Positions 20,241 through 31,043 of a DNA stretch of 32,000 nucleotides are shown here, in pieces (positions within the stretch are counted from its first letter, which is position 1; every line of letters starts with the position of its first letter). The notes under the pieces are model-generated. The model worked only from the letters and a program-made list of their open reading frames with translations, did no database searches and was not told the DNA's origin. Source of the stretch: Acaryochloris marina S15 (GTDB taxonomy: Bacteria > Cyanobacteriota > Cyanobacteriia > Thermosynechococcales > Thermosynechococcaceae). The position numbers and the translations under genes are program-made. The stretch covers positions 30,001 to 62,000 of the forward strand of contig NZ_CP064925.1 of NCBI RefSeq assembly GCF_018336915.1, written 5' to 3'.

Positions 20241-22757
20241 ATGAATTCACTTAGATTTTGGAGTCATTCGTTATCATCTTTTTGCTTCATTCTAGTATCA
20301 ACAGTCCAAGCGGATGCTCAGATTATTCCTGACTCTACACTTGGGGCAGAAAGTTCAATTGTTAATTCTATCAATGGCACTCCTAATACTAGGCTAACAG
20401 GTGGAGTAACTAGAGGTTCAAATCTTTTTCATAGCTTTTTAGAATTTAGTATTAACAACGGCCAGGGAGCTTATTTTGATACTTCTAATAATATACAAAC
20501 AATTATAACGAGAGTAACAGGAAATAAAACTTCTCTAATTAATGGAGCTTTAGGTAACTTAGGAAATGCTGATCTCTTCTTTCTTAATCCCAATGGCATC
20601 ATTTTTGGTCGAAATGCCTCTCTAGACCTCAATGGCTCCTTTATTGGTAGTACTGCAAATAACCTTTGGTTTAAGGATAAATCAATCTTCCCTGCTAATC
20701 CTTCGCTTAAATCTCTTGTACTTACTAGTAGCACCCCAAGTAGTCTTGAATTCTCAGAAAACCCTGGCCTTATCCAGATAGTTGGTGAAGGCAACAGACT
20801 CGCAGATTTCACGATTTTCCCACTATTCAATCCTTTTAATGTTCCAGCTGGACTTTCTTTAAAGCCGAATAATACTCTTGCATTGATTGGTGGGAGAATC
20901 TTAAGTCAAGGAGGAGTAATAAGATCCTCAAGTGGTCGAATTGAATTAGGTAGTATTTCCAGCGGTGAAATAGAACTCAATAAGATTAATTCAGGTTGGG
21001 CATTTGATTACTCAAATGTAAACTTATTCCAAAATATTGAACTCACTGAAAGATCACTTATTGATACTTCCGGTATTGTAGGTGGATCAATTAATTTACA
21101 AGGTCGAAGCATTACTTTAGACGGGGGTTCTACCGTCTTAATACAAAATCTGGGAGATTTACCTTCAGGGAATATCACAGTAAGTGCTTCGGAAAGTCTA
21201 ACAGTAAGTGGAATATCTGATGATCCTCGTTTCATCACTCCTGTAATTGCTGCAATTGCCGGGGATGACTTAAATATTAAAATCCCTAGCACCTTCTTAA
21301 CAGAAACTATTGGTCAAGGAGAATCAGGAGATATTAAAGTTTCCACCTCAAAATTAGTTGTTAATGATGGTGCTCAAATCCTTACAAGAACTTACAGTAC
21401 TGGGGAGACTGGGAAGATAGATATTAAAGCTACTGAAACTATTCAAGTTTTAGATTTTGCACCAACTTTACCAGTGGTCTTTAGCAATATTAGTACTGCT
21501 ACATTTAATTCGGGTGATTCTGGAGATCTAACGCTATCCGCCAAAAATATAGTTGCCTCTAACGGTGGTAGTATCGGTTCTGCTACTTTCAATATTGGGA
21601 ATGGGGGAGATGTAAATATTAATGCAACAGACATTACTTTGACAGGGGTAGTACCATTTTTATTTATTCCTAGTGGAATTACTGGAGCTACATTTAGCTC
21701 CGGCTCCGCAGGTACAATAACAATCAATACGTCTTCTTTGTCATTAATAGATGGTGGTCGTTTAGGAACATCTACAGTTGCATCTGGTGATGCTGGTGAA
21801 GTTACGATTAATGCTGCTCAGTTTGTAAAAGTTAGTGGGACTGTTCCTGGCTCAATAAACCCCAGCATAATAGATTCCTCCGCTAATATTATTGATCCTG
21901 CCTTAAGAGTTGAATTAGGGCTGCCTGGAAGTCCACTGCCAATAATACCTAGTGGAACTGCTGGTGACGTATCCATCAGCACCCAGAATTTACTTGTTGA
22001 TAATGGTGGTCTAATTAGTGTTCGAAATGATGGTCAAGGAGATGCAGGATCACTAACAATTGATAGCAAAAGAATTAGTCTGAATAATGGAGCTATTGTC
22101 GCTAGCACCAACGGCGGTAATGGTGGAAACATTGATCTTTTATCAGAGCTATTGATATCAAACAATGGCTTAATTTCTGGATCGGCTCAAGGTGATGGAA
22201 CGGGTGGCAACTTAACTATCAATTCAGATCTAATCGTTTCATTCAATAACAGTCTATTTTCTGCAAATGCAGAGCAAGCAACAGGTGGAAATATTTTGGT
22301 TAACACTCAAGGAATATTTCTAGGTGAAGATAGCAAGATCACGGCTTCATCCTTATTAGGGGCGCAATTTACTGGCAATATCGAAGTCAATAGTCCCAAC
22401 ATAGATTTCACAAAGGCAACATTGGATCTAGCGATTAGACCTGAAATTGAGCGAGTGACAACTAGCTGTAATATCAGCCCTGGAGAAGCAGCGAGTGAAT
22501 TCACTCGTCCTGGGTCCGGGGGGATTGCATCAAACTCTGATAGTTTTGGGGAAATTAGTGTAGCTACAACCAGTCAAGCTAATCTGCAAGCCCAACAAGA
22601 ATATTATCTTGATCCAGAAACAGGGAAGCCAGAAAAATACCCCAACGTTGTTGGCTGGAAAAACAATCCAGATGGCACAATTGCATTTACTTCTGATCCA
22701 ACAGAAGCAGTCCAAACTAAAGCGTTCTGCTCAAAAGCTGCCTCAAAAGAATCATAG
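20241..22757 (+). CDS. Two-partner-secretion exoprotein (TpsA), with a filamentous-hemagglutinin-type N-terminal TPS domain plus beta-helix
   Basis: The signal peptide is MNSLRFWSHSLSSFCFILVSTVQADA. The TPS domain is GGVTRGSNLFHSFLEFSI..ITRVTG..SLINGAL..ADLFFLNPNGIIFG. At least 9 rung-like motifs of the form GxxGD/N-h-x-h-x-A/S/T occur (GDSGDLTLSA, GNGGDVNINA, GSAGTITINT, GDAGEVTINA, GTAGDVSIST, GDAGSLTIDS, GNGGNIDLLS, GTGGNLTINS, ATGGNILVNT). Confidence 0.9.
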   Translation: MNSLRFWSHSLSSFCFILVSTVQADAQIIPDSTLGAESSIVNSINGTPNTRLTGGVTRGSNLFHSFLEFSINNGQGAYFDTSNNIQTIITRVTGNKTSLINGALGNLGNADLFFLNPNGIIFGRNASLDLNGSFIGSTANNLWFKDKSIFPANPSLKSLVLTSSTPSSLEFSENPGLIQIVGEGNRLADFTIFPLFNPFNVPAGLSLKPNNTLALIGGRILSQGGVIRSSSGRIELGSISSGEIELNKINSGWAFDYSNVNLFQNIELTERSLIDTSGIVGGSINLQGRSITLDGGSTVLIQNLGDLPSGNITVSASESLTVSGISDDPRFITPVIAAIAGDDLNIKIPSTFLTETIGQGESGDIKVSTSKLVVNDGAQILTRTYSTGETGKIDIKATETIQVLDFAPTLPVVFSNISTATFNSGDSGDLTLSAKNIVASNGGSIGSATFNIGNGGDVNINATDITLTGVVPFLFIPSGITGATFSSGSAGTITINTSSLSLIDGGRLGTSTVASGDAGEVTINAAQFVKVSGTVPGSINPSIIDSSANIIDPALRVELGLPGSPLPIIPSGTAGDVSISTQNLLVDNGGLISVRNDGQGDAGSLTIDSKRISLNNGAIVASTNGGNGGNIDLLSELLISNNGLISGSAQGDGTGGNLTINSDLIVSFNNSLFSANAEQATGGNILVNTQGIFLGEDSKITASSLLGAQFTGNIEVNSPNIDFTKATLDLAIRPEIERVTTSCNISPGEAASEFTRPGSGGIASNSDSFGEISVATTSQANLQAQQEYYLDPETGKPEKYPNVVGWKNNPDGTIAFTSDPTEAVQTKAFCSKAASKES

Positions 22758-22765
22758 GCAGATAC

Positions 22766-24466
22766 ATGTTTAATAGAAATTTTTTGCTGCTTAGTCTGGT
22801 TGGGCCATGTATCTTTTCGCAACCTGCTTTTTCTCAAGCACAACTTCTAAATCCATCTGATCTAACACCCAGGAAATCTCCTATACCAGATTTTCCAATA
22901 CTACCTGAGTTAGATCCCTTACTGGAAAAACCTTCGTTACCTGAGCAAATTCCACCCGATTTTTTACAGGATTCTGTTGAGGTAGAAAGCTTTTTATTCA
23001 AAGGAGCTACTGTTTATCGTGACGAGGATTTACAGAAAATTTCTGCACCATATCTGGAAGGACCACAAAGTATTGTTGAGCTACAAGAACTCACTCAGGA
23101 AATTGTTGCTTTTTACGAAAATGCTGGATATGTTGCAATCTCAGCAGCTCTGGCACAACAGCAAAACTCCAAGATAGATCCCAGTAAAGCCGTCGTCACA
23201 ATCCTGATCACGGAAGGTACTCTTGAGAACATTGATATCCAGGGAGCTAAGCGCCTGGAGAAGTATGTTCGGCAGCGATTGCCCAAGCTAAATTCAATAA
23301 TTAACGAAGACACGATCCTAGAAGATATCCGAATACTACAAGCAGACCCACTGGTTGAGAAAATTTCAGTTGGTCTGACAAAGGGGTCTTTCTTGAATCG
23401 ATACACCCTAAACGTTGAAGTTACCCCAGCAAAACAAAGGAGTCTAGTTCTTGCCCTCGACAACGATCGCCCTCCTACTGTAGATACGTTTCAACGCAGC
23501 ATCGAATTCACAGATCGCAACCTCGTTGGATGGGGGGACAACCTCAACCTCAAAGTTAGCAATACAGACGGCAGCACCTCTGTTCAGTTTGCCTATTCTC
23601 TGCCAGTAAATCCCCAAAACGGCACCGTGGGTGTGAAATATTTCTACGGTTCGAGCAAGGTGGTAGAAGACCCTTTTGATGGACTGGATATCGAGGCTGA
23701 TGCAGAGCTTTGGGAATTATGGTTTAGGCAACCCATTATCCAAAAAGCAACCACAAATTCAGTAGAAGAACTTGCATTAAGGATCGCATTCACTCGTGAA
23801 TCCAGTGACTTCTCGCTATTGGGCATCCCTTTCCCGGTTTCAAGAGGTGCCGATGCATTAGGCCGAACCCGAACATCAGTTCTTCGCTTTTCTCAGGACT
23901 GGTCTAAGCAGAGCAATGAAACTATTCTCTTCTTGAGGTCACAGTTTAATTTTGGTCTAGATATTCTAGGCGCGACAACAGATGATGACGGTCCTGATGG
24001 TCGCTTTTTCGCGTGGAAGGCACAAGGGCTTGTGGTAAAACGATTGTTTGATGATTGGACAATAGCTTTAAGATCCGAGCTGCAACTTGCTGAAAGTACC
24101 CTCGTCCCTTCAGAGCAAGTCTCTTTGGGGGGATTCTCCTCTGTCCGTGGTTATCGCCAAAATCTATTGTTGGGTGATAATGGTTGGCTTAGTTCAATAG
24201 AACTAGGGATTCCCCTTTACTCAGGAGCCGTTGGTAATTTTAGGCTAGCGCCATTTTTTGAGGTCGGTACAGTTTGGAATAACGAGCCTCAATTTATTCC
24301 TACTGCAAATACCCTTGCTGCAGTAGGAATTGGTTTGCGCTATCAGCAAGGAGACTGCCCAAGTGTCCGTCTTGACTGGGGTATCCCCTTGCTAAACACT
24401 CCAGAACAAAGGCCATCTCTTCAAGAATCAGGCATCTACATATCAGTACAATGCGATATTTTTTAA
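22766..24466 (+). CDS. TpsB outer-membrane transporter (ShlB/FhaC/HecB family, POTRA plus beta-barrel)
   Basis: The signal peptide is MFNRNFLLLSLVGPCIFSQPAFSQA. The POTRA-like segment is VESFLFKGATVYRDEDLQKISAPYLEGPQSIVELQELTQEIVAFYENAGY. The barrel motif is LGGFSSVRGYRQN and the terminal residue is Phe (..SVQCDIF*). The start lies 9 nt after the TpsA stop. Confidence 0.9.
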   Translation: MFNRNFLLLSLVGPCIFSQPAFSQAQLLNPSDLTPRKSPIPDFPILPELDPLLEKPSLPEQIPPDFLQDSVEVESFLFKGATVYRDEDLQKISAPYLEGPQSIVELQELTQEIVAFYENAGYVAISAALAQQQNSKIDPSKAVVTILITEGTLENIDIQGAKRLEKYVRQRLPKLNSIINEDTILEDIRILQADPLVEKISVGLTKGSFLNRYTLNVEVTPAKQRSLVLALDNDRPPTVDTFQRSIEFTDRNLVGWGDNLNLKVSNTDGSTSVQFAYSLPVNPQNGTVGVKYFYGSSKVVEDPFDGLDIEADAELWELWFRQPIIQKATTNSVEELALRIAFTRESSDFSLLGIPFPVSRGADALGRTRTSVLRFSQDWSKQSNETILFLRSQFNFGLDILGATTDDDGPDGRFFAWKAQGLVVKRLFDDWTIALRSELQLAESTLVPSEQVSLGGFSSVRGYRQNLLLGDNGWLSSIELGIPLYSGAVGNFRLAPFFEVGTVWNNEPQFIPTANTLAAVGIGLRYQQGDCPSVRLDWGIPLLNTPEQRPSLQESGIYISVQCDIF

Positions 24467-26925
24467 ACAGCCTTTTACTTTCAGCATTAATAGCCCTAGC
24501 AAGCATCCCTGCCCTGGCTAGCCCTATTGAGAAGGCAGAGCAACTTACCACTCAAGGGCATCAGCATCTACGACAGGGCAATCCTGGCAATGCGATTGAG
24601 ACGTGGCTAAAAGCATTACAGATTTACCAAAAAGAGAATTCAGAAGATGGTGAGAAAAGTACTCTGATTCACTTGAGCTTGGCTTATCGAGCAAAAGGCC
24701 AGTATCCCAATGCCTGCTGGGTGCTGACGGATGCCCTAGAGGTAGACGACAGTGCTATTTGTCGCAACGTCAACCGACCAACCGCTGAAGAGGTTGCTAC
24801 CGCCCTTCAAATCATTAAGGAACAGCCTGATACTTTACTGACTCTCAAAGCTTTGCAAGAGCTAGGCATAGTTTTACGAGTCATTGGAAATCTAGATGAA
24901 TCTGTGTCAGTCCTAGAGATAGCTCTAGCCTCAGCTCAGAGACAAAATCTAACTTTTGAGCATTACGCACTTAGAATGAGCTTGGCAAACGTTCAAGCGG
25001 ATCTTATTCGCCAAGCCCAAAATCGATTTTCTTTATCGGATAATCCACTAACAAAAGCCCAGTTTATTGAGGTTGCAACTTCAACGCTACCCGATGTCTC
25101 AAAAACGTATCTGGAACTAGCAGCAACAGGGCCAAGATTCCTCCGAGCAAGATTGAATTGGCTCAAAATTTTCTTATCCATCAACCAATGGGCTAATCAA
25201 GATCCGACAAATCCTGAACTATCTGCGTTGAGAAGCAGCCTAATTCCTGGCTTGGATTCCACGCTGGATAAAGCCTTAGTAGCGGATTACTCGAAAGAAT
25301 CACCGATCCAAAGTGTATACAGCCGAATCAAATTAGCAAAATACCTTCTGGAAATACAGAAGAGTGATTTACCTGTAACCACCGAGAAGCACATCCTCAT
25401 CCTCGCTTTTGAACTTGCGAATTCAGCTAGGAACGATGCACTGAGTCTAAAAAATGAGCGGGCAGAGTCCTTTGCTGTCGGAGTAACGGGCCTACTATAC
25501 AAGACTACAAAGCAGAACGATTTTGCACAAAGATCTTTCAAGGCTGCGAGGGATTTAGCGGTATCAAGCAACTCTGCTGATTCTGCCTATGAGTGGGAAT
25601 GGGAGCTAGCAAAACTATATCAAGCGCAGGGTCAAACCCAGGATGCAATCTCAGCCTATGAACGATCAATCAAAAACCTTGATCAGGTTAGAGGTGATCT
25701 GCTCCCTATTGACTCTGAGCTGCAATTCAGATTCGCAGACAAAGTTAAGCCCGTTTATCAACAATACATCAGCGTACTATTGGAGTCTGATACGCCAAAT
25801 TTAGAGAAAGCTGTATTAACAAACGAGCGGCTGCAAGTTGCTCAAATCGAGAATTTCCTGCACTGTGGAAAGCTAGTTTTCGTCTCCACAACCCAAATCG
25901 AGAATGCACCAACTACAATCCATGTTCTGGAACTGGAAGACAGTTTTGAGATACTTGTACCCAACAACGGGACTTGGGCAAGGTTCTCAGCCAATGGGGA
26001 GCGGGTCAGAGGTCTTGCTAGTAAAATCTTAATAGAGCTTCAAGATGAACAATTTTCCAGCACTGAAGACGATTCCTTGCTAGCAGAATCCCAAGCACTT
26101 TACCAGCTACTACTAGACCCAATTGAGAAGCAGGGGCTATTGCCAGAACAGGACGACACGATTGTGTTTGTCACTGATGGAATTCTTAGTAATATTCCCC
26201 TATCAATGCTCCATGATGGCAAGAAGTATTTGGTCGAACGATATAGTATTGCTACTAATCTGGGCAGACTGCAAGCTCCTGAAGCGGTTAGTCCCCAGCA
26301 GCTCAAATTACTGATCACAGGGATATCGAAAGCAAGCCCTAGCCTAAATGCTCCTCAAATTCCGTCAGGGCTGGATGTCTTATCGGAAACAGAAGAAGAA
26401 GCCACTCTGGTTAGCAGTAGCAAAATAGAATCATCTACTTTACTCAATAGCAAGTTTACTGCCAACAACTTAAGAAGAAAGTTGAGTGGCGATTACAATG
26501 CGTTGCACATTTCCACTCACGGGCAATTTTCTTCAGATCCAAATCAAACGTTTTTACTGGCATGGGATAAACCCGTCCCATTACAAGAGCTTGATACCAT
26601 CATTAGGCAAGGAACTCAAGTTGCTGCTAATAACTTGGAGCTACTTTTCCTGAGTGCCTGCCAGTCTGCAAAAGGTGACCAGCTATCTAGCCTGGGTATT
26701 GCGGGTGTGTCAATCCAAGCTGGTGCAAAATCAACAGTCGCATCCTTGTGGCTAGTTGATGCTGAATCTACTGCTCAGCTTGTAGGAGACTTTTACAAAT
26801 CATTGGCAAATGGAAAGACGAAAGCAGAGGCCCTGCGAAAAGCTCAATTGGCACTATTGGGTAAACCTGCTACTCGCCACCCTTACTACTGGGCACCATT
26901 TGTCTTGTCGGGAAGCTGGCTTTGA
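24451..26925 (+). CDS. Exported TPR-CHAT domain protein (caspase-like protease fold)
   Basis: The Sec-type signal is MRYFLNSLLLSALIALASIPALA|SP. The N-terminal two thirds are TPR-like helices. In the C-terminal CHAT domain the His is in LHISTHGQF (codon 26518-26520) and the Cys is in LLFLSACQSAKG (26659-26661). The family-typical end is HPYYWAPFVLSGSWL*. The start overlaps the tpsB 3' end by 16 nt. Confidence 0.88.
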   Translation: MRYFLNSLLLSALIALASIPALASPIEKAEQLTTQGHQHLRQGNPGNAIETWLKALQIYQKENSEDGEKSTLIHLSLAYRAKGQYPNACWVLTDALEVDDSAICRNVNRPTAEEVATALQIIKEQPDTLLTLKALQELGIVLRVIGNLDESVSVLEIALASAQRQNLTFEHYALRMSLANVQADLIRQAQNRFSLSDNPLTKAQFIEVATSTLPDVSKTYLELAATGPRFLRARLNWLKIFLSINQWANQDPTNPELSALRSSLIPGLDSTLDKALVADYSKESPIQSVYSRIKLAKYLLEIQKSDLPVTTEKHILILAFELANSARNDALSLKNERAESFAVGVTGLLYKTTKQNDFAQRSFKAARDLAVSSNSADSAYEWEWELAKLYQAQGQTQDAISAYERSIKNLDQVRGDLLPIDSELQFRFADKVKPVYQQYISVLLESDTPNLEKAVLTNERLQVAQIENFLHCGKLVFVSTTQIENAPTTIHVLELEDSFEILVPNNGTWARFSANGERVRGLASKILIELQDEQFSSTEDDSLLAESQALYQLLLDPIEKQGLLPEQDDTIVFVTDGILSNIPLSMLHDGKKYLVERYSIATNLGRLQAPEAVSPQQLKLLITGISKASPSLNAPQIPSGLDVLSETEEEATLVSSSKIESSTLLNSKFTANNLRRKLSGDYNALHISTHGQFSSDPNQTFLLAWDKPVPLQELDTIIRQGTQVAANNLELLFLSACQSAKGDQLSSLGIAGVSIQAGAKSTVASLWLVDAESTAQLVGDFYKSLANGKTKAEALRKAQLALLGKPATRHPYYWAPFVLSGSWL

Positions 26926-27851
26926 TATTGATCCAGAGCTTGCAAGCCAGCTTGAGCTTTCTCTAGGGCAACTTGATTATTCTGAGACTTTGCTAACTGC
27001 ATAGCCTTCAAGTACTTCTCTCTAGCTTCATCCAGCAACCTTACATCAATAAAGCGTTCTGCCAACACCGTAAATATTTCCGGGTGACTACTTCCTGCCT
27101 GTATTCTGGCCTCTAACACTTTAATACTTTCGTCCAGTACACCTTTGGACAGATAGGCGGCATTGAGATCTAAATATGCCTCTCGGTCTGGATCGAGCTT
27201 AAAGCTACGAATTAGTCCAATCATCTGCTGAAGATCTTTCGCGTCTTCGGTCTTCAGCAAGCGGAATATAGAAGAATCCGCAACAATCGGAACCTCATTT
27301 TTATAGGCAATCACGTTGACCTTATAACGATTCCCTGGACTCAAAGGAGCGTGTTCATCAGGATATTCTAAAAACGCTGATGTAGTGGTTTTTGACCACA
27401 AATTTTTCCTGGGAGATCCAAACTCAAACCGATATCTTGTTGCACCGTCAACAGCAGACCAAGAGAACTGTGGTCGGGGTTCCAGTAGCCAACGACCATA
27501 AGGGGTGATTATTCTTGGCTTTACTGCACGGCTACCACCTTTCCTTCGATTACAAAAGCTACGAGAAGGGAGAGGGCATTTTTTAAGGTTGGAATCCCTG
27601 GTCTGTTTTTTAGGCCGACATTGTTGCTCGGATGGATTGAAGTAGCAGAGGACAAAGCTACCTGATATTTGCGAAACAATCTGATCGCCACTACAAAGCA
27701 ATTTACCGACGAGATTCTGCTGACTCGCCTTCAAGATTCGGCCAATCGGTTCACAGGTTTCTTTCTTGGGCTGCGATTGAGCTACAGCCGAAGCAGGCCA
27801 AATAATTTGTGAGGCCAACAGAATCAGGGTTGTTTGCTTCGCAAGATTCAT
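26886..27851 (-). CDS. Exported Cys-rich protein with a C-terminal TPR-like region (possibly DUF928-like)
   Basis: The signal peptide is MNLAKQTTLILLASQIIWPASAVA. There are six Cys in the first 100 mature residues. The segment RRKGGSR..PRPQFSWSAVDGATRYRFEF..LSPGNRYKVNV resembles the GGGTRG / PTFxW / xEFxL / LxxGxxYxW pattern I recall for cyanobacterial DUF928. The C-terminus is helical repeats. The DUF928 link is tentative. Confidence 0.6.
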   Translation of the reverse strand: MNLAKQTTLILLASQIIWPASAVAQSQPKKETCEPIGRILKASQQNLVGKLLCSGDQIVSQISGSFVLCYFNPSEQQCRPKKQTRDSNLKKCPLPSRSFCNRRKGGSRAVKPRIITPYGRWLLEPRPQFSWSAVDGATRYRFEFGSPRKNLWSKTTTSAFLEYPDEHAPLSPGNRYKVNVIAYKNEVPIVADSSIFRLLKTEDAKDLQQMIGLIRSFKLDPDREAYLDLNAAYLSKGVLDESIKVLEARIQAGSSHPEIFTVLAERFIDVRLLDEAREKYLKAMQLAKSQNNQVALEKAQAGLQALDQYQSQLPDKTNGAQ

Positions 27852-27899: not shown

Positions 27900-29639
27900 C
27901 TATGGCTCTGGGAACAAGCGATTGAGTACGAGGCTCTTCCATTCATCTACCTCTGGTAAAGATGAATCGAGTTGTAGACAAGTTTTCCAAGCTTTTTGTG
28001 CCAAGGGCTGTTTACCTTGCTCTTGATAGACTTGGGCAATAAGACAGTGGGCTGCTGCCATCTCGGGATCTAGGCTAGTTGCTTGTTTTAAATGATCTTC
28101 AGCTTGCTCGTGCTGTTCAAGTTTGAATTCTGCCCAGCCCAGATTTTTCAACAGCAGCGCCCTATCTAAGTCTCTTGCTGCAGTCTCCCCTACCACTCTT
28201 GTCACCAATTTCTTTGCTTCAGCATAATTACCCTGCAATATTTTAAGGCGCGATAGATTATTGGCCGATCCGACAGCTTGGGCATCCGTAGCATTCTCAA
28301 TCACCCGTCTGTAATATTTCTCGGCTAACGTAGCGTTTCCTTGATCCTCATATAGGCTAGCCAGATTGAAAGTCGAGATCCAATAACTGGAATTTACTTG
28401 AGCTGCTTTTTTGTAGTTTTCGATAGCACAAGGGAGATCACCCTCGACCTGACAGATAATACCTAGATTGTTGAGGGTTTCTTCGTTGTTGGGATTCAGA
28501 TTTAGAGCTTTTGCATAATTCTCTTTAGCTGCACTCAGTTGATTGTTCGATTGCTCTACATACCCCTTGTAAAAGTAGTGTTCTGCCATAGACTGACTGT
28601 AGAATTCCTTCCCCTCTTTGATACCTACGTATCCCAGTACAGCGATACAGACAGCAAAAACCCCTAAACCCAATTTGAAATATGGAGATCGGCTGGCTTT
28701 CTCCCAAAGCTCCAGCTTTTCAATGTCTTGAAGGAGGTACTTAGTGCTTTGATGGCGATCTCCTGGTTGGATCGCCATCATTTTGTCCAGCAGATTAGCC
28801 AGTTTGCGATCCAATCGAGGTAATTTATCTCGCCAAATAGGTTCTCCTGTTTTCTTGTCGATAGGTAGCTTATAAGGCTGAACCCCTGTCAGTACCTCAA
28901 TAATGGTGCGTCCCAAGGCATAAAAATCTGACTGGGGCAGCGCTTTGCCGTTGACCTGCTCTAGGGGGGAGTACCCCATGCTTTGAATTAAAGTAATGTC
29001 GTCAAAGCGCTCAGTAATACCGTCAGTGTTCTCAGGTGTGGCTAACTTAGCAATGTACGTTTCCGTGATGGGCCTAATAGCACCAAGATCTATTAATGCC
29101 AGCTTTCCATCTGGCCTCACAATTATGTTTGACGGTTTGATATCTCGGTGAAAAAAGCGCTTTTCATGAATTGCATGGAGGATTTGAGCCAGTTGCTTCA
29201 GCCAATCAAAAGCTTGATGAGGAGATACGGGATCATGAGTTTTCAGCCATTCCTTAAGCGTCACCCCCTCTATTTTTTCCATCACAAATCCATAAATCTC
29301 ACATGGATCTTGTAATGGGTTTAATTTTATTTTGAAATACTCGTACCACTCTGCTCTCGGCACACACGGATGCCGAATACTTCTAAGTGCTACATATTCA
29401 CGCTCAAACATTGTGACTAGCTTTGGCTGAACATCCTTGAGGATTTTTATGATCTTGACATCCTCATCCCCTGCCTGCGCCTCAAAAACCTCTGATCTCC
29501 TTAAAGGATGGAGATCGCCCAATGGTTTTAGTAAGCGATAGCGATCTCCTATCAGCAAGGAGGCCCCACAGTTTTGACATTGATCCAATTGGTCTGGATT
29601 TAGTCGTTGATCACATATAGGATTCGGACAATAGCTCAC
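27900..29639 (-). CDS. Membrane-spanning Ser/Thr protein kinase: 4-Cys zinc-ribbon prefix, kinase domain, one TM segment, C-terminal TPR repeats
   Basis: The 4-Cys prefix is CPNPICDQRLNPDQLDQCQNCG. Kinase motifs are VKIIKILK, HRDIKPSNII, DLGAI and SPLEQ. The TM segment is FKLGLGVFAVCIAVLGYVGI. It is followed by about 6 TPR-like repeats (..AKENYAKALNLNPNNEETLNNLG..AIENYKKAAQVNSSY..). Confidence 0.9.
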   Translation of the reverse strand: MSYCPNPICDQRLNPDQLDQCQNCGASLLIGDRYRLLKPLGDLHPLRRSEVFEAQAGDEDVKIIKILKDVQPKLVTMFEREYVALRSIRHPCVPRAEWYEYFKIKLNPLQDPCEIYGFVMEKIEGVTLKEWLKTHDPVSPHQAFDWLKQLAQILHAIHEKRFFHRDIKPSNIIVRPDGKLALIDLGAIRPITETYIAKLATPENTDGITERFDDITLIQSMGYSPLEQVNGKALPQSDFYALGRTIIEVLTGVQPYKLPIDKKTGEPIWRDKLPRLDRKLANLLDKMMAIQPGDRHQSTKYLLQDIEKLELWEKASRSPYFKLGLGVFAVCIAVLGYVGIKEGKEFYSQSMAEHYFYKGYVEQSNNQLSAAKENYAKALNLNPNNEETLNNLGIICQVEGDLPCAIENYKKAAQVNSSYWISTFNLASLYEDQGNATLAEKYYRRVIENATDAQAVGSANNLSRLKILQGNYAEAKKLVTRVVGETAARDLDRALLLKNLGWAEFKLEQHEQAEDHLKQATSLDPEMAAAHCLIAQVYQEQGKQPLAQKAWKTCLQLDSSLPEVDEWKSLVLNRLFPEP

Positions 29640-29654
29640 TGAACAAGAACCCTA

Positions 29655-31043
29655 CTAAACTTTCTGGGAAATTCGCGCCTTCACAGCTCCAGACGGATCT
29701 GTAAGCAGATATTTCCTAATGACGGGAGGCATCCTAAATTCCAAGGCTTTTGCGGTGAATTCTTTCTCAATAACTGAACGCTCAGTGAGAGAATTCAACG
29801 CTTCCAGGATTTGAGACTTTGATGTGCTAAATTGCTGTTCATCAATTATGTGCGTAATCAAGCTATCCAGCGTAATTGAATCATCAATTTCTAACTGTTG
29901 AGCCATAAGAACTAAGATTTGCATCTCTAAAAGGCTAAGTCTCCCGCCTATCCCAAATTGCTGATCAAATCTAGAAGGGAAAGAACTACCTAGCCATATA
30001 GTTTCATATTCAATAAATCGACTTATTTTCCCATCGAAAAAGTCTTTAATTCGGTCTGCTATATTGTGGAGTGCAAGAGGATTTCCACGATACTGGTCAG
30101 TAATTTTTAACCAATCATCTCGCCCTTGCAAAGCATACTCTTCATATATTTCAAGTGATTCACTAGCAGAAAGACCTGTTAAATGAAATGTTGTAACTGG
30201 TTTTTTAGCTTGGCTAAGCTCATCCAAGTCTTTGAAATTTTCTCTACTTGTTAAAACTACAACACTATTATGAGATTCCTCTACAACTCTTCTTAGTAAA
30301 TAGCCGTAGCCAATATATTTTTCACCGTAAGGATTAATATTGTCACCTTTTAGAATAGAGTCAGCTTCGTCTAGGATTAAAAAGCATCTATTTACTTTAA
30401 GGAATCTAATAAATTCATCACTCGAATAATCTTTGTCTCTATCCTTAGAGTCCTGATTAATATCTTGAATAATATTTTGGTATAAATCTTCTAGATGAGG
30501 ACCATGATAAATTGACTTCCAGATATAATAATCAAATTCATAATCATCCGACCGACTAACTAAGTCTATTAGCTTTGCTGCTAAGGAGCTTTTACCTATA
30601 CCCACTTGCCCTGTAATAACGATACAGCGGCTATCTTGTGTTCTCATGAGTAATTTTTTCAGCTCTGATGATCGACCATACAGCTTCTCAGTAGAAGGTA
30701 GGTAATCAATATTTGACTGCGATCTACCAGCGTTCCAAACCCGGTCATCTCCAGGTAGAACACCAACTGTATCAATTAGCTCTTCAACAACATCCTTGAT
30801 ATAAGGCTTGCCAATTCGGTATTCCTCTCCTAATATCTGCTGGAGAAATCGCCATAATCCAGGGCCAGCAGTATTTTGTAGGTAAGCTTTTTCAAATCGC
30901 GAGTCAGCCGCTAACGCTTCGTAAGACAATCCTTTTATTGAGCCATGCAAAATACACCGCTCAACCTCGGTAAGCTTTTTTCCCCGTATTTTTAGGGATT
31001 GACTATCAACCCAAGTGTAGAAATCATCAAGCGTTAAAGCCAT
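29655..31043 (-). CDS. STAND-class NB-ARC ATPase with an N-terminal HTH-like module and no C-terminal repeat sensor
   Basis: The N-terminus is KLTEVERCILHGSIKGLSYEALAA..GPGLWRFLQQILGEE, the helix-turn-helix-like cap seen on many cyanobacterial NB-ARC/WD40 proteins. Walker A is ITGQVGIGKSSLAAKL and Walker B is CFLILDEAD. VVVLTSRE and the NB-ARC GxPLA motif (YRGNPLAL) are present. The C-terminus is winged-helix-like. The protein ends at 462 aa without WD40, TPR or LRR repeats. Confidence 0.8.
   Translation of the reverse strand: MALTLDDFYTWVDSQSLKIRGKKLTEVERCILHGSIKGLSYEALAADSRFEKAYLQNTAGPGLWRFLQQILGEEYRIGKPYIKDVVEELIDTVGVLPGDDRVWNAGRSQSNIDYLPSTEKLYGRSSELKKLLMRTQDSRCIVITGQVGIGKSSLAAKLIDLVSRSDDYEFDYYIWKSIYHGPHLEDLYQNIIQDINQDSKDRDKDYSSDEFIRFLKVNRCFLILDEADSILKGDNINPYGEKYIGYGYLLRRVVEESHNSVVVLTSRENFKDLDELSQAKKPVTTFHLTGLSASESLEIYEEYALQGRDDWLKITDQYRGNPLALHNIADRIKDFFDGKISRFIEYETIWLGSSFPSRFDQQFGIGGRLSLLEMQILVLMAQQLEIDDSITLDSLITHIIDEQQFSTSKSQILEALNSLTERSVIEKEFTAKALEFRMPPVIRKYLLTDPSGAVKARISQKV

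Follow-up and report, generated by a model that had tools for sequence, protein, structure and literature searches.

What purpose does an exported caspase-like protease serve beside the genes of a two-partner secretion (TPS) system? The question is raised by a stretch of 32,000 nucleotides (nt) from contig NZ_CP064925.1 of Acaryochloris marina S15 (positions 30,001 to 62,000), which we refer to as the window and whose numbering is used throughout. It harbours a tpsA/tpsB pair followed by a gene, here called the CHAT gene, for a protein of 824 amino acids (aa) combining a leader, an array of tetratricopeptide repeats (TPRs) and a C-terminal CHAT domain. Two-partner secretion has been viewed as a pathway of two proteins, and the proteases which mature other TpsA exoproteins have been described as "yet unidentified" (PMC5422565). 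The explanation which we favour, and in which our confidence is evenly balanced, is that the CHAT protein constitutes a soluble periplasmic TPR-CHAT cysteine protease which serves the system as a dedicated third partner and acts on a periplasmically retained tail of TpsA. The features concerned are:

20241..22757, plus strand: tpsA, for a secreted beta-helical exoprotein of 838 aa with a signal peptide and a TPS domain at residues 26-285.
22766..24466, plus strand: tpsB, for an Omp85-type transporter of 566 aa with a signal peptide, a POTRA domain and a ShlB-type barrel.
24451..24466, plus strand: overlap of tpsB and the CHAT gene, 16 nt, sequence read directly.
24451-26925, plus strand: CHAT gene, 824 aa, third gene of the putative two-partner secretion operon.
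24451..24519, plus strand: Sec-type signal peptide of the CHAT protein, residues 1-23, predicted cleavage ALA|SP.
24520..25860, plus strand: TPR superhelix of about 21 helices, residues 24 to ~470 (Pfam TPR_12 and TPR_2; AlphaFold2 model).
26086..26916, plus strand: CHAT protease domain (clan CD, caspase-like; PF12770, 6e-53).

By their TPS domain, their POTRA domain with Omp85/ShlB barrel and their adjacency at a gap of 8 nt, tpsA and tpsB form a two-partner secretion (type Vb) pair. TpsA matches the TPS profile of Pfam (PF05860, 1.7e-47) as well as adhes_NPXG of NCBIfam (TIGR01901, 3e-19) and contains the motifs NPNGI and NLFHSF, and TpsB matches ShlB (PF03865, 1.2e-22), POTRA_2 (PF08479, 3.4e-7) and Omp85 (3.3e-14). 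Together with the CHAT gene, which lies on the same strand, the pair forms a single block of one transcription direction spanning 20241-26925. A previous inspection of the same letters by a model, hereafter the sequence-only reading, had placed the ATG of the CHAT gene (24451) inside the last 16 nt of tpsB, and direct reading confirms this position: tpsB ends in CAA TGC GAT ATT TTT TAA (Q C D I F stop), the TAA occupying 24464-24466. No Shine-Dalgarno-like sequence is present within 15 nt upstream of ATG 24451, and from this absence together with the overlap we infer that translation of the CHAT gene may be coupled to that of tpsB. Scans for promoters and terminators between 19800 and 28000 yielded nothing exceeding the shuffled expectation. 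A Pfam scan of the window reveals TPS, kinase, NB-ARC and P450 genes as neighbours, with no cas genes nearby and no sigma factor gene among the neighbours of the CHAT gene.

The CHAT domain of the 824-aa product is complete with respect to its Pfam profile, residues 546-822 covering positions 3-289 of 289 with a score of 180.6 bits at a cut-off of 24. His690 (codon 26518-26520) is embedded in ISTHGQFS and Cys737 (codon 26659-26661) in LSACQSAK. Both residues are invariant in three alignments comprising 17 (close and distant), 49 (diverged) and 29 sequences, which bears out the previous statement that the two catalytic residues are kept. The flanking motifs THG.FS and LSAC.(T/S)A.GD are likewise invariant, both in the 49 diverged sequences and in a family of proteins in which TpsA and TPR-CHAT are fused (see below). 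The AlphaFold2 (AF2) model of the protein, for which the family alignment served as input, attains a mean predicted local distance difference test (pLDDT) score of 88.2 and a predicted template modelling (pTM) score of 0.86; its secondary structure comprises the helices H25-H470 with pLDDT mostly above 90. The best Foldseek match of this model is Csx29, the protease of Craspase (8eey_B, 1.6e-15), followed by the periplasmic TPR-CHAT protein DdvA (8rw5 and 8rot, about 1e-13) and separase (7nj1, 5.5e-11). The model accordingly supports a caspase-hemoglobinase fold for the CHAT domain. A sequence search among solved structures, for which the CHAT domain served as query both as a single sequence and as a profile of 29 sequences, matched no CHAT structure; hence, the catalytic residues are not alignable by sequence to those of Csx29, DdvA and separase, to which Foldseek alone provides the link. 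Judged from its sequence, the product is a bona fide TPR-CHAT protein with an intact His/Cys pair.

Whether this protein leaves the cytoplasm depends on the authenticity of its leader. The reading frame opens at about 24376, behind an in-frame stop, and ATG 24451 is the first start codon it offers. The next ATG, GTG or TTG occurs only at about residue 74, inside conserved TPR helices and behind the conserved TPR residues G36, G43, W52 and Y59. Since no start other than ATG 24451 precedes the conserved region, no choice of start does away with the leader, and a true start further downstream, which the sequence-only reading had considered, is ruled out. The N-terminus reads MRYFLNSLLLSALIALASIPALA|SPIEK and, inspected directly, divides into the n-region MR with Arg2, the h-region YFLNSLLLSALIALASI and the c-region PALA|SP. 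The h-region comprises about 17 uncharged residues with a mean Kyte-Doolittle hydropathy of 2.09, and A-L-A occupies positions -3 to -1; a lipobox cysteine is absent from the leader on direct reading. An alignment of CHAT orthologues reveals a leader-like N-terminus down to an identity of 30%. Using a strict rule (15 uncharged residues of mean hydropathy at least 2.0, Lys or Arg just upstream and a start codon within 30 codons), 61 out of 78 family members are positive compared to 111 out of 631 (17.6%) long open reading frames (ORFs) of the host genome. Most of the members failing this rule still carry a shorter leader, e.g. MIKRRDWFKYVFSSILGLLTVVG|KPS. The Sec-type signal ending in ALA|SP, as previously proposed, is in agreement with all of these observations, and the CHAT protein is predicted to be exported via Sec by a canonical leader which follows a unique start. 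A looser rule, by which the best of all candidate starts was taken, rendered 73 of 80 family members positive and was discarded as uninformative because it also accepted 46% of the genome's long ORFs. A disulfide between Cys89 and Cys104 was considered as an independent sign of export and dropped, these cysteines being conserved in the close clade only.

The genetic context of the family was analysed by a scan with one genome per species, which yielded 581 relatives. The neighbourhoods of the best 80 of these were examined, all labelled cyanobacterial except for a few metagenome-assembled genomes (MAGs; three "uncultured bacterium", one "Actinomycetota"). In most of these 80 loci tpsA is located directly upstream of the CHAT gene on the same strand, and only in a handful tpsB is placed between the two. 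Measured at 43 junctions with predicted start sites, the CHAT gene and the gene upstream are between -49 and +437 nt apart (median 53 nt); 12 of the junctions overlap and 19 lie within 30 nt. As tpsB intervenes in few loci and the spacing varies across the relatives, the 16-nt overlap with tpsB is a local arrangement, and what is conserved is the succession of tpsA and the CHAT gene. The association of the CHAT gene with two-partner secretion, which the sequence-only reading had tied to this overlap, consequently stands with regard to the single block formed with tpsA and tpsB, the conserved partner in the 80 loci being tpsA rather than tpsB.

The pairing goes as far as a single polypeptide. 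The chromosome of the host contains, in addition to a tpsA-tpsA-CHAT cluster, one ORF of 2092 aa which unites a TPS domain with a beta-helix, TPRs and a CHAT domain. Among the 120 best long relatives of this TpsA::TPR-CHAT fusion, the majority harbour both PF05860 and PF12770; cyanobacteria are their main source, some of the proteins being labelled Desulfobacterales or Myxococcota. In these natural fusions the CHAT part forms the C-terminal end. A FastTree phylogeny of 143 TPR-CHAT regions, for which local support values only are available, shows fused and split forms interleaved: 8 changes between them are required, at least 5 of which are imposed by branches with good support, and the labels, shuffled 500 times, never gave a number as low. 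The CHAT protein of the window belongs to a fully supported clade of 19 members, all of them split. Within a fusion the CHAT part trails the signal peptide of TpsA across the inner membrane, and the split forms regularly possess a leader of their own. This pattern argues that the CHAT part has to leave the cytoplasm, as would be expected of a protease working beside the C-terminal end of TpsA. A search covered 33 genomes of the same class besides that of the window; the family is present in 29 of them (30 of 34 when the latter is included), often with up to 11 matches each, and was not found in the small-genome families sampled. In public annotation its members appear merely as "CHAT domain-containing protein" or "filamentous hemagglutinin family protein". 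Taken by its genetic pattern, the TPR-CHAT family suggests itself as a built-in periplasmic processing enzyme of secreted TPS fibres across cyanobacteria.

The candidate substrate is the C-terminal tail of TpsA, with the following segments:

22467..22730, plus strand: C-terminal tail of TpsA between C743 and C830, candidate periplasmic retention module and CHAT target.
22494-22538, plus strand: degenerate family motif in the tail, SEFTRPGSGGIASNS.
22647-22688, plus strand: degenerate EAQGW..G.v.L hairpin in the tail, VVGWKNNPDGTIAF.

C743 and C830 are the sole cysteines of mature TpsA and bracket its last 88 residues. In TpsA proteins encoded upstream of CHAT genes the module reads ...DPSxGLxxLP...C(x5-12)SxFxxTGRGGLPxxP...W.DL...(variable)...EAQGW..dG.v.L.A...C. 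Exactly two cysteines are found within the last 175 aa of 47 out of 49 such proteins, the C..F..G.G motif is recognisable in 41 and the hairpin in 39 of the 49. In the fused family C79, F89, G95, G96 and P101 are invariant and R94 is conserved to at least 90%, so the first half of the module is conserved like the catalytic residues, and the TPRs of the fusions start immediately after it. An AF2 model of the fusion junction displays the motif as an island of confidence (pLDDT 73-87) between linkers below 50, a pattern characteristic of a short stretch that docks onto a folded body. Tails of this kind have precedents: the disulfide-containing C-terminal anchors of HMW1 and HxuA remain periplasmic, and CdrB retains CdrA through a C-terminal "cysteine hook" of the latter, which is shed once periplasmic LapG cuts its tail (PMC5422565; PMC13405001 for CdrA).

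Our favoured explanation would unfold as follows. The genes tpsA, tpsB and CHAT would be expressed as one operon and Sec would carry all three products across the inner membrane. TpsB would then export the beta-helical part of TpsA, whose two-cysteine tail would presumably be kept in the periplasm as a retention module. There, the TPR arm of the CHAT protein would bind the tail, which we infer to be the substrate, and the His690/Cys737 site would cut it, in trans in the present system and in cis where CHAT forms the C-terminal end of the TpsA polypeptide. As a consequence of the cut, the fibre might be matured or released from the cell. The role of a maturation protease for TpsA, which the sequence-only reading had offered as one of two options, is thus the one favoured by the comparative data, with the cleavage itself put forward as a presumption.

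Several observations weigh against this explanation. Given the 46% background of the loose leader rule, only the strict rule and the direct reading count as indication of export. Some distant relatives have a hydrophobic stretch whose length would suffice for a membrane anchor instead of a cleaved leader; in either case, however, the bulk of the CHAT protein would, to judge from the sequences, face the periplasm. The island of confidence at the fusion junction shows the motif to be ordered and not where it docks. The arginine that the wider family has in its motif is not conserved in the window's clade (SEFTRPGSGG in the window, FVNTGAGG in the related locus L030). A cut after this arginine, which had been considered in analogy to separase in view of its conservation in the fused family, was therefore rejected, as a simple rule of this kind cannot hold in a clade that lacks the residue. 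Finally, the window's clade always carries the genes of three further proteins, any of which may hold the real substrate:

26886..27851, minus strand: gene for an exported protein of 321 aa with the leader ..WPASAVA|QSQ, a beta-rich middle and a TPR-like C-terminus.
27900..29639, minus strand: Ser/Thr kinase gene (Pfam Pkinase, 4e-21; TPR matches).
29655..31043, minus strand: NB-ARC/STAND ATPase gene (Pfam NB-ARC, 1e-12).

These neighbours give rise to a serious alternative, albeit one which we consider rather unlikely. According to it, the CHAT protein is a DdvA-like envelope signalling protease whose target is not TpsA but the 321-aa protein or the periplasmic TPR domain of the kinase, with TpsA acting as surface sensor and the NB-ARC ATPase as cytoplasmic output. 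The constant presence of the three genes beside the cassette in the closest clade argues for it, as does the leader of the 321-aa protein. So does the architecture of the kinase: hydropathy indicates a single membrane helix (residues 321-342) between its kinase and TPR domains, and because this one helix divides the two, the TPRs would face the periplasm and hence the compartment of the CHAT protein. DdvA, moreover, is a structural match of the CHAT protein and has been proposed to signal via CHAT cleavage. Against it, most members of the family consist of tpsA and CHAT only, without kinase or NB-ARC, and the fusions are mostly to TpsA and not to signalling proteins. Signalling and cleavage of the tail are compatible, since the cut of the TpsA tail could itself be the signal. 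In a further-reaching version, which appears clearly unlikely to us, the exported TPR-CHAT protein would, together with the TpsA fibre and the periplasmic tail of the latter, constitute a surface-to-periplasm signalling device wired to the kinase and the NLR-like NB-ARC ATPase. A mechanical, contact or phage-derived event at the fibre would expose the tail to the caspase-like protease, and cleavage of this tail, the 321-aa protein or the kinase ectodomain would switch on the membrane Ser/Thr kinase and the NB-ARC ATPase. If this were true, most large cyanobacterial genomes would contain multiple copies of a bacterial extracytoplasmic "caspase" pathway.

That CHAT might instead be a second cargo, the other option of the sequence-only reading, is improbable. 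The TPS pair would in this case deliver a toxin-like or substrate-degrading CHAT protein to the surface or to target cells, comparable to the C-terminal toxin domains of CdiA and the caspase-like domains of polymorphic toxins. CHAT indeed occupies the most C-terminal position in the fusions, which is the usual one of toxin domains, and C-terminal caspase-like domains have been described as toxins by Zhang et al. 2012 (PMC3482391). In the same work, however, the sole peptidase linked to type V secretion is HINT (PMC3482391). Neither Pfam nor NCBIfam detects a TPS domain in the 824-aa CHAT protein, which by this criterion is not a TpsB substrate; being a split protein with a plain Sec leader, it offers nothing for TpsB to recognise. 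Furthermore, a folded TPR solenoid of 800 aa is ill-suited to the TpsB pore, which moves unfolded chains (PMC5422565). Behind the CHAT gene there is no small immunity-like gene, nor is the C-terminus polymorphic, the CHAT domain being conserved across the family. The C-terminal end, where CHAT resides in the fusions, is also the part that stays periplasmic in HMW1, HxuA, CdrA and FhaB.

We judge it similarly doubtful that the protein binds without cutting, i.e. that it serves as periplasmic chaperone, plug or anchor of the TpsA tail. TPR arrays are binding modules, and the CHAT site of DdvA is resting and incomplete, with dyad mutants showing no phenotype (PMC11506125). Yet His, Cys and their flanking motifs are invariant both in the fused family and in the 49 diverged sequences, which is difficult to account for in a protein that does not catalyse. 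A non-functional leader, leaving the CHAT protein in the cytoplasm like Csx29 and HetF and its adjacency to TPS genes incidental, is hardly credible in view of the unique start, the canonical n-, h- and c-regions, the conservation of the leader in diverged orthologues and the recurrence of adjacency or fusion to TpsA in hundreds of cases.

Among the characterised systems, CdrA/CdrB-LapG of Pseudomonas aeruginosa resembles the window closely in that a TpsA tail with two cysteines is combined with a periplasmic or exported cysteine protease, the topology being predicted in the case of the window. The proteases, however, differ. LapG is a bacterial transglutaminase-like cysteine proteinase (BTLCP, PF06035), whereas the protease of the window is a clan CD CHAT protein that has a long TPR arm. 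The c-di-GMP receptor LapD controls LapG, whose gene lies apart from cdrAB, in contrast to a protease which adjoins TpsA or is fused with it. The CdrA-type TAAG cleavage motif is, on direct reading, absent from the window's TpsA tail (residues 700-838), and the host genome, which is 99% complete, yields no match to a LapG homologue (PF06035).

The sequence-only reading had referred to CHAT proteases as cytoplasmic effectors. DdvA of Myxococcus xanthus, whose structure was solved in 2024 (8rot, 8rw5; PMC11506125), is an exception and the only described periplasmic TPR-CHAT protein. It shares the His-Cys dyad and the fold with the protein of the window, and a signal-induced cleavage in the periplasm has been proposed for it (PMC11506125). 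DdvA differs in being membrane-anchored, with a cytoplasmic zinc anti-sigma domain bound to a sigma factor of the extracytoplasmic function (ECF) type, whereas in the CHAT protein of the window only a 23-aa leader and no anti-sigma domain precedes the TPRs. In addition, DdvA is dimeric, lacks three active-site helices and has no TPS partner. Csx29 and separase share the TPR superhelix and the C-terminal CHAT domain with the window's protein, but are cytoplasmic or nuclear, carry no leader and exhibit no detectable sequence similarity to it. Csx29 is activated by Cas7-11 and RNA, and separase is controlled by securin.

FhaB/FhaC of Bordetella as well as HMW1 and HxuA of Haemophilus are further systems whose TPS exoproteins possess a periplasmic C-terminal part, as proposed here for the TpsA tail. 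DegP and CtpA, which are among the proteases processing FhaB, are general or unlinked. Unlike in the window, none of the proteases processing FhaB, HMW1 and HxuA is known to be a CHAT protein or to be encoded in, or fused to, a TPS operon. The C-terminal part of FhaB is removed by proteases, and SphB1 is one of the processing enzymes (PMC5422565). It, too, counts among the general or unlinked ones. Our literature search retrieved no paper linking the CHAT domain or TPR-CHAT proteins to two-partner secretion; one preprint merely lists both labels. Two-partner secretion with periplasmic proteolytic processing is known in kind, and what is different is the protease family and its hard-wiring.

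This hard-wiring extends to a whole protease family, whose members are linked to TpsA genetically, being encoded by the gene that follows or forming the C-terminus of the TpsA polypeptide itself. The pairing may account for many of the genes annotated as "CHAT domain-containing" and "filamentous hemagglutinin" in cyanobacteria. Should the CHAT protein cut the TpsA tail, the missing maturation or release enzyme would be named for a large class of TPS systems, a second extracytoplasmic role of a CHAT protease would stand beside that of DdvA, and a defined substrate motif would be at hand for a family whose bacterial substrates are almost all unknown.

Some further observations concern the gene opposite the CHAT gene and the copies of the cassette. 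The 321-aa gene is convergent with the CHAT gene and their 3' ends overlap by 40 nt (26886-26925). An overlap between the two genes, determined by ORF end coordinates, recurs at 26-59 nt in eight loci of other genera (L022, L024, L025, L028, L030, L031, L033 and L070), so that the convergent overlap itself looks conserved as judged from these coordinates. The 321-aa protein has no Pfam match even at E=10. Its assignment to DUF928 was tried and rejected: Pfam provides none, a single one of nine orthologues matches with E=0.11, and otherwise the orthologues show weak TPR matches. Two true DUF928 genes (PF06051) are found on the host chromosome (C1). One at C1:2278797-2279306 is located about 1.7 kb upstream of the TpsA::TPR-CHAT fusion, and a second at C1:5581263-5581889 about 2.3 kb downstream of another CHAT gene (C1:5578130-5578930).

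The cassette of the window is also present on three other small contigs of the host genome, amounting to four plasmid copies in all. In a paralogous cassette on contig C4 (G000:C4:63232-69947) the CHAT gene is intact, while tpsB is split into 63232-63981 and 65055-66137 and tpsA into 66100-66825 and 68064-69947, the pieces of each gene lying about 1.1-1.2 kb apart; judging from these gaps, the splits are probably insertions. The chromosome contains one clear tpsB (G000:C1:3449497-3451287) as opposed to five tpsA genes plus the fusion. A ShlB match at C1:2159429-2159737 stays below threshold (20.8 bits at a cut-off of 22.7). Either one transporter may serve several exoproteins or divergent transporters may have been missed. 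Among the related loci, the contig L091, designated "MAG: Actinomycetota bacterium", may be a mis-binned cyanobacterial sequence, its CHAT leader MKLTRSLRQAIL... being near-identical to MKFTRSLRQAIL... of Microcoleus/Microcoleaceae. A Tolypothrix contig (L089:4636-18254), finally, accommodates two cassettes tail to tail, a tpsA-CHAT arrangement facing a converging tpsA-tpsB-CHAT arrangement on the opposite strand.

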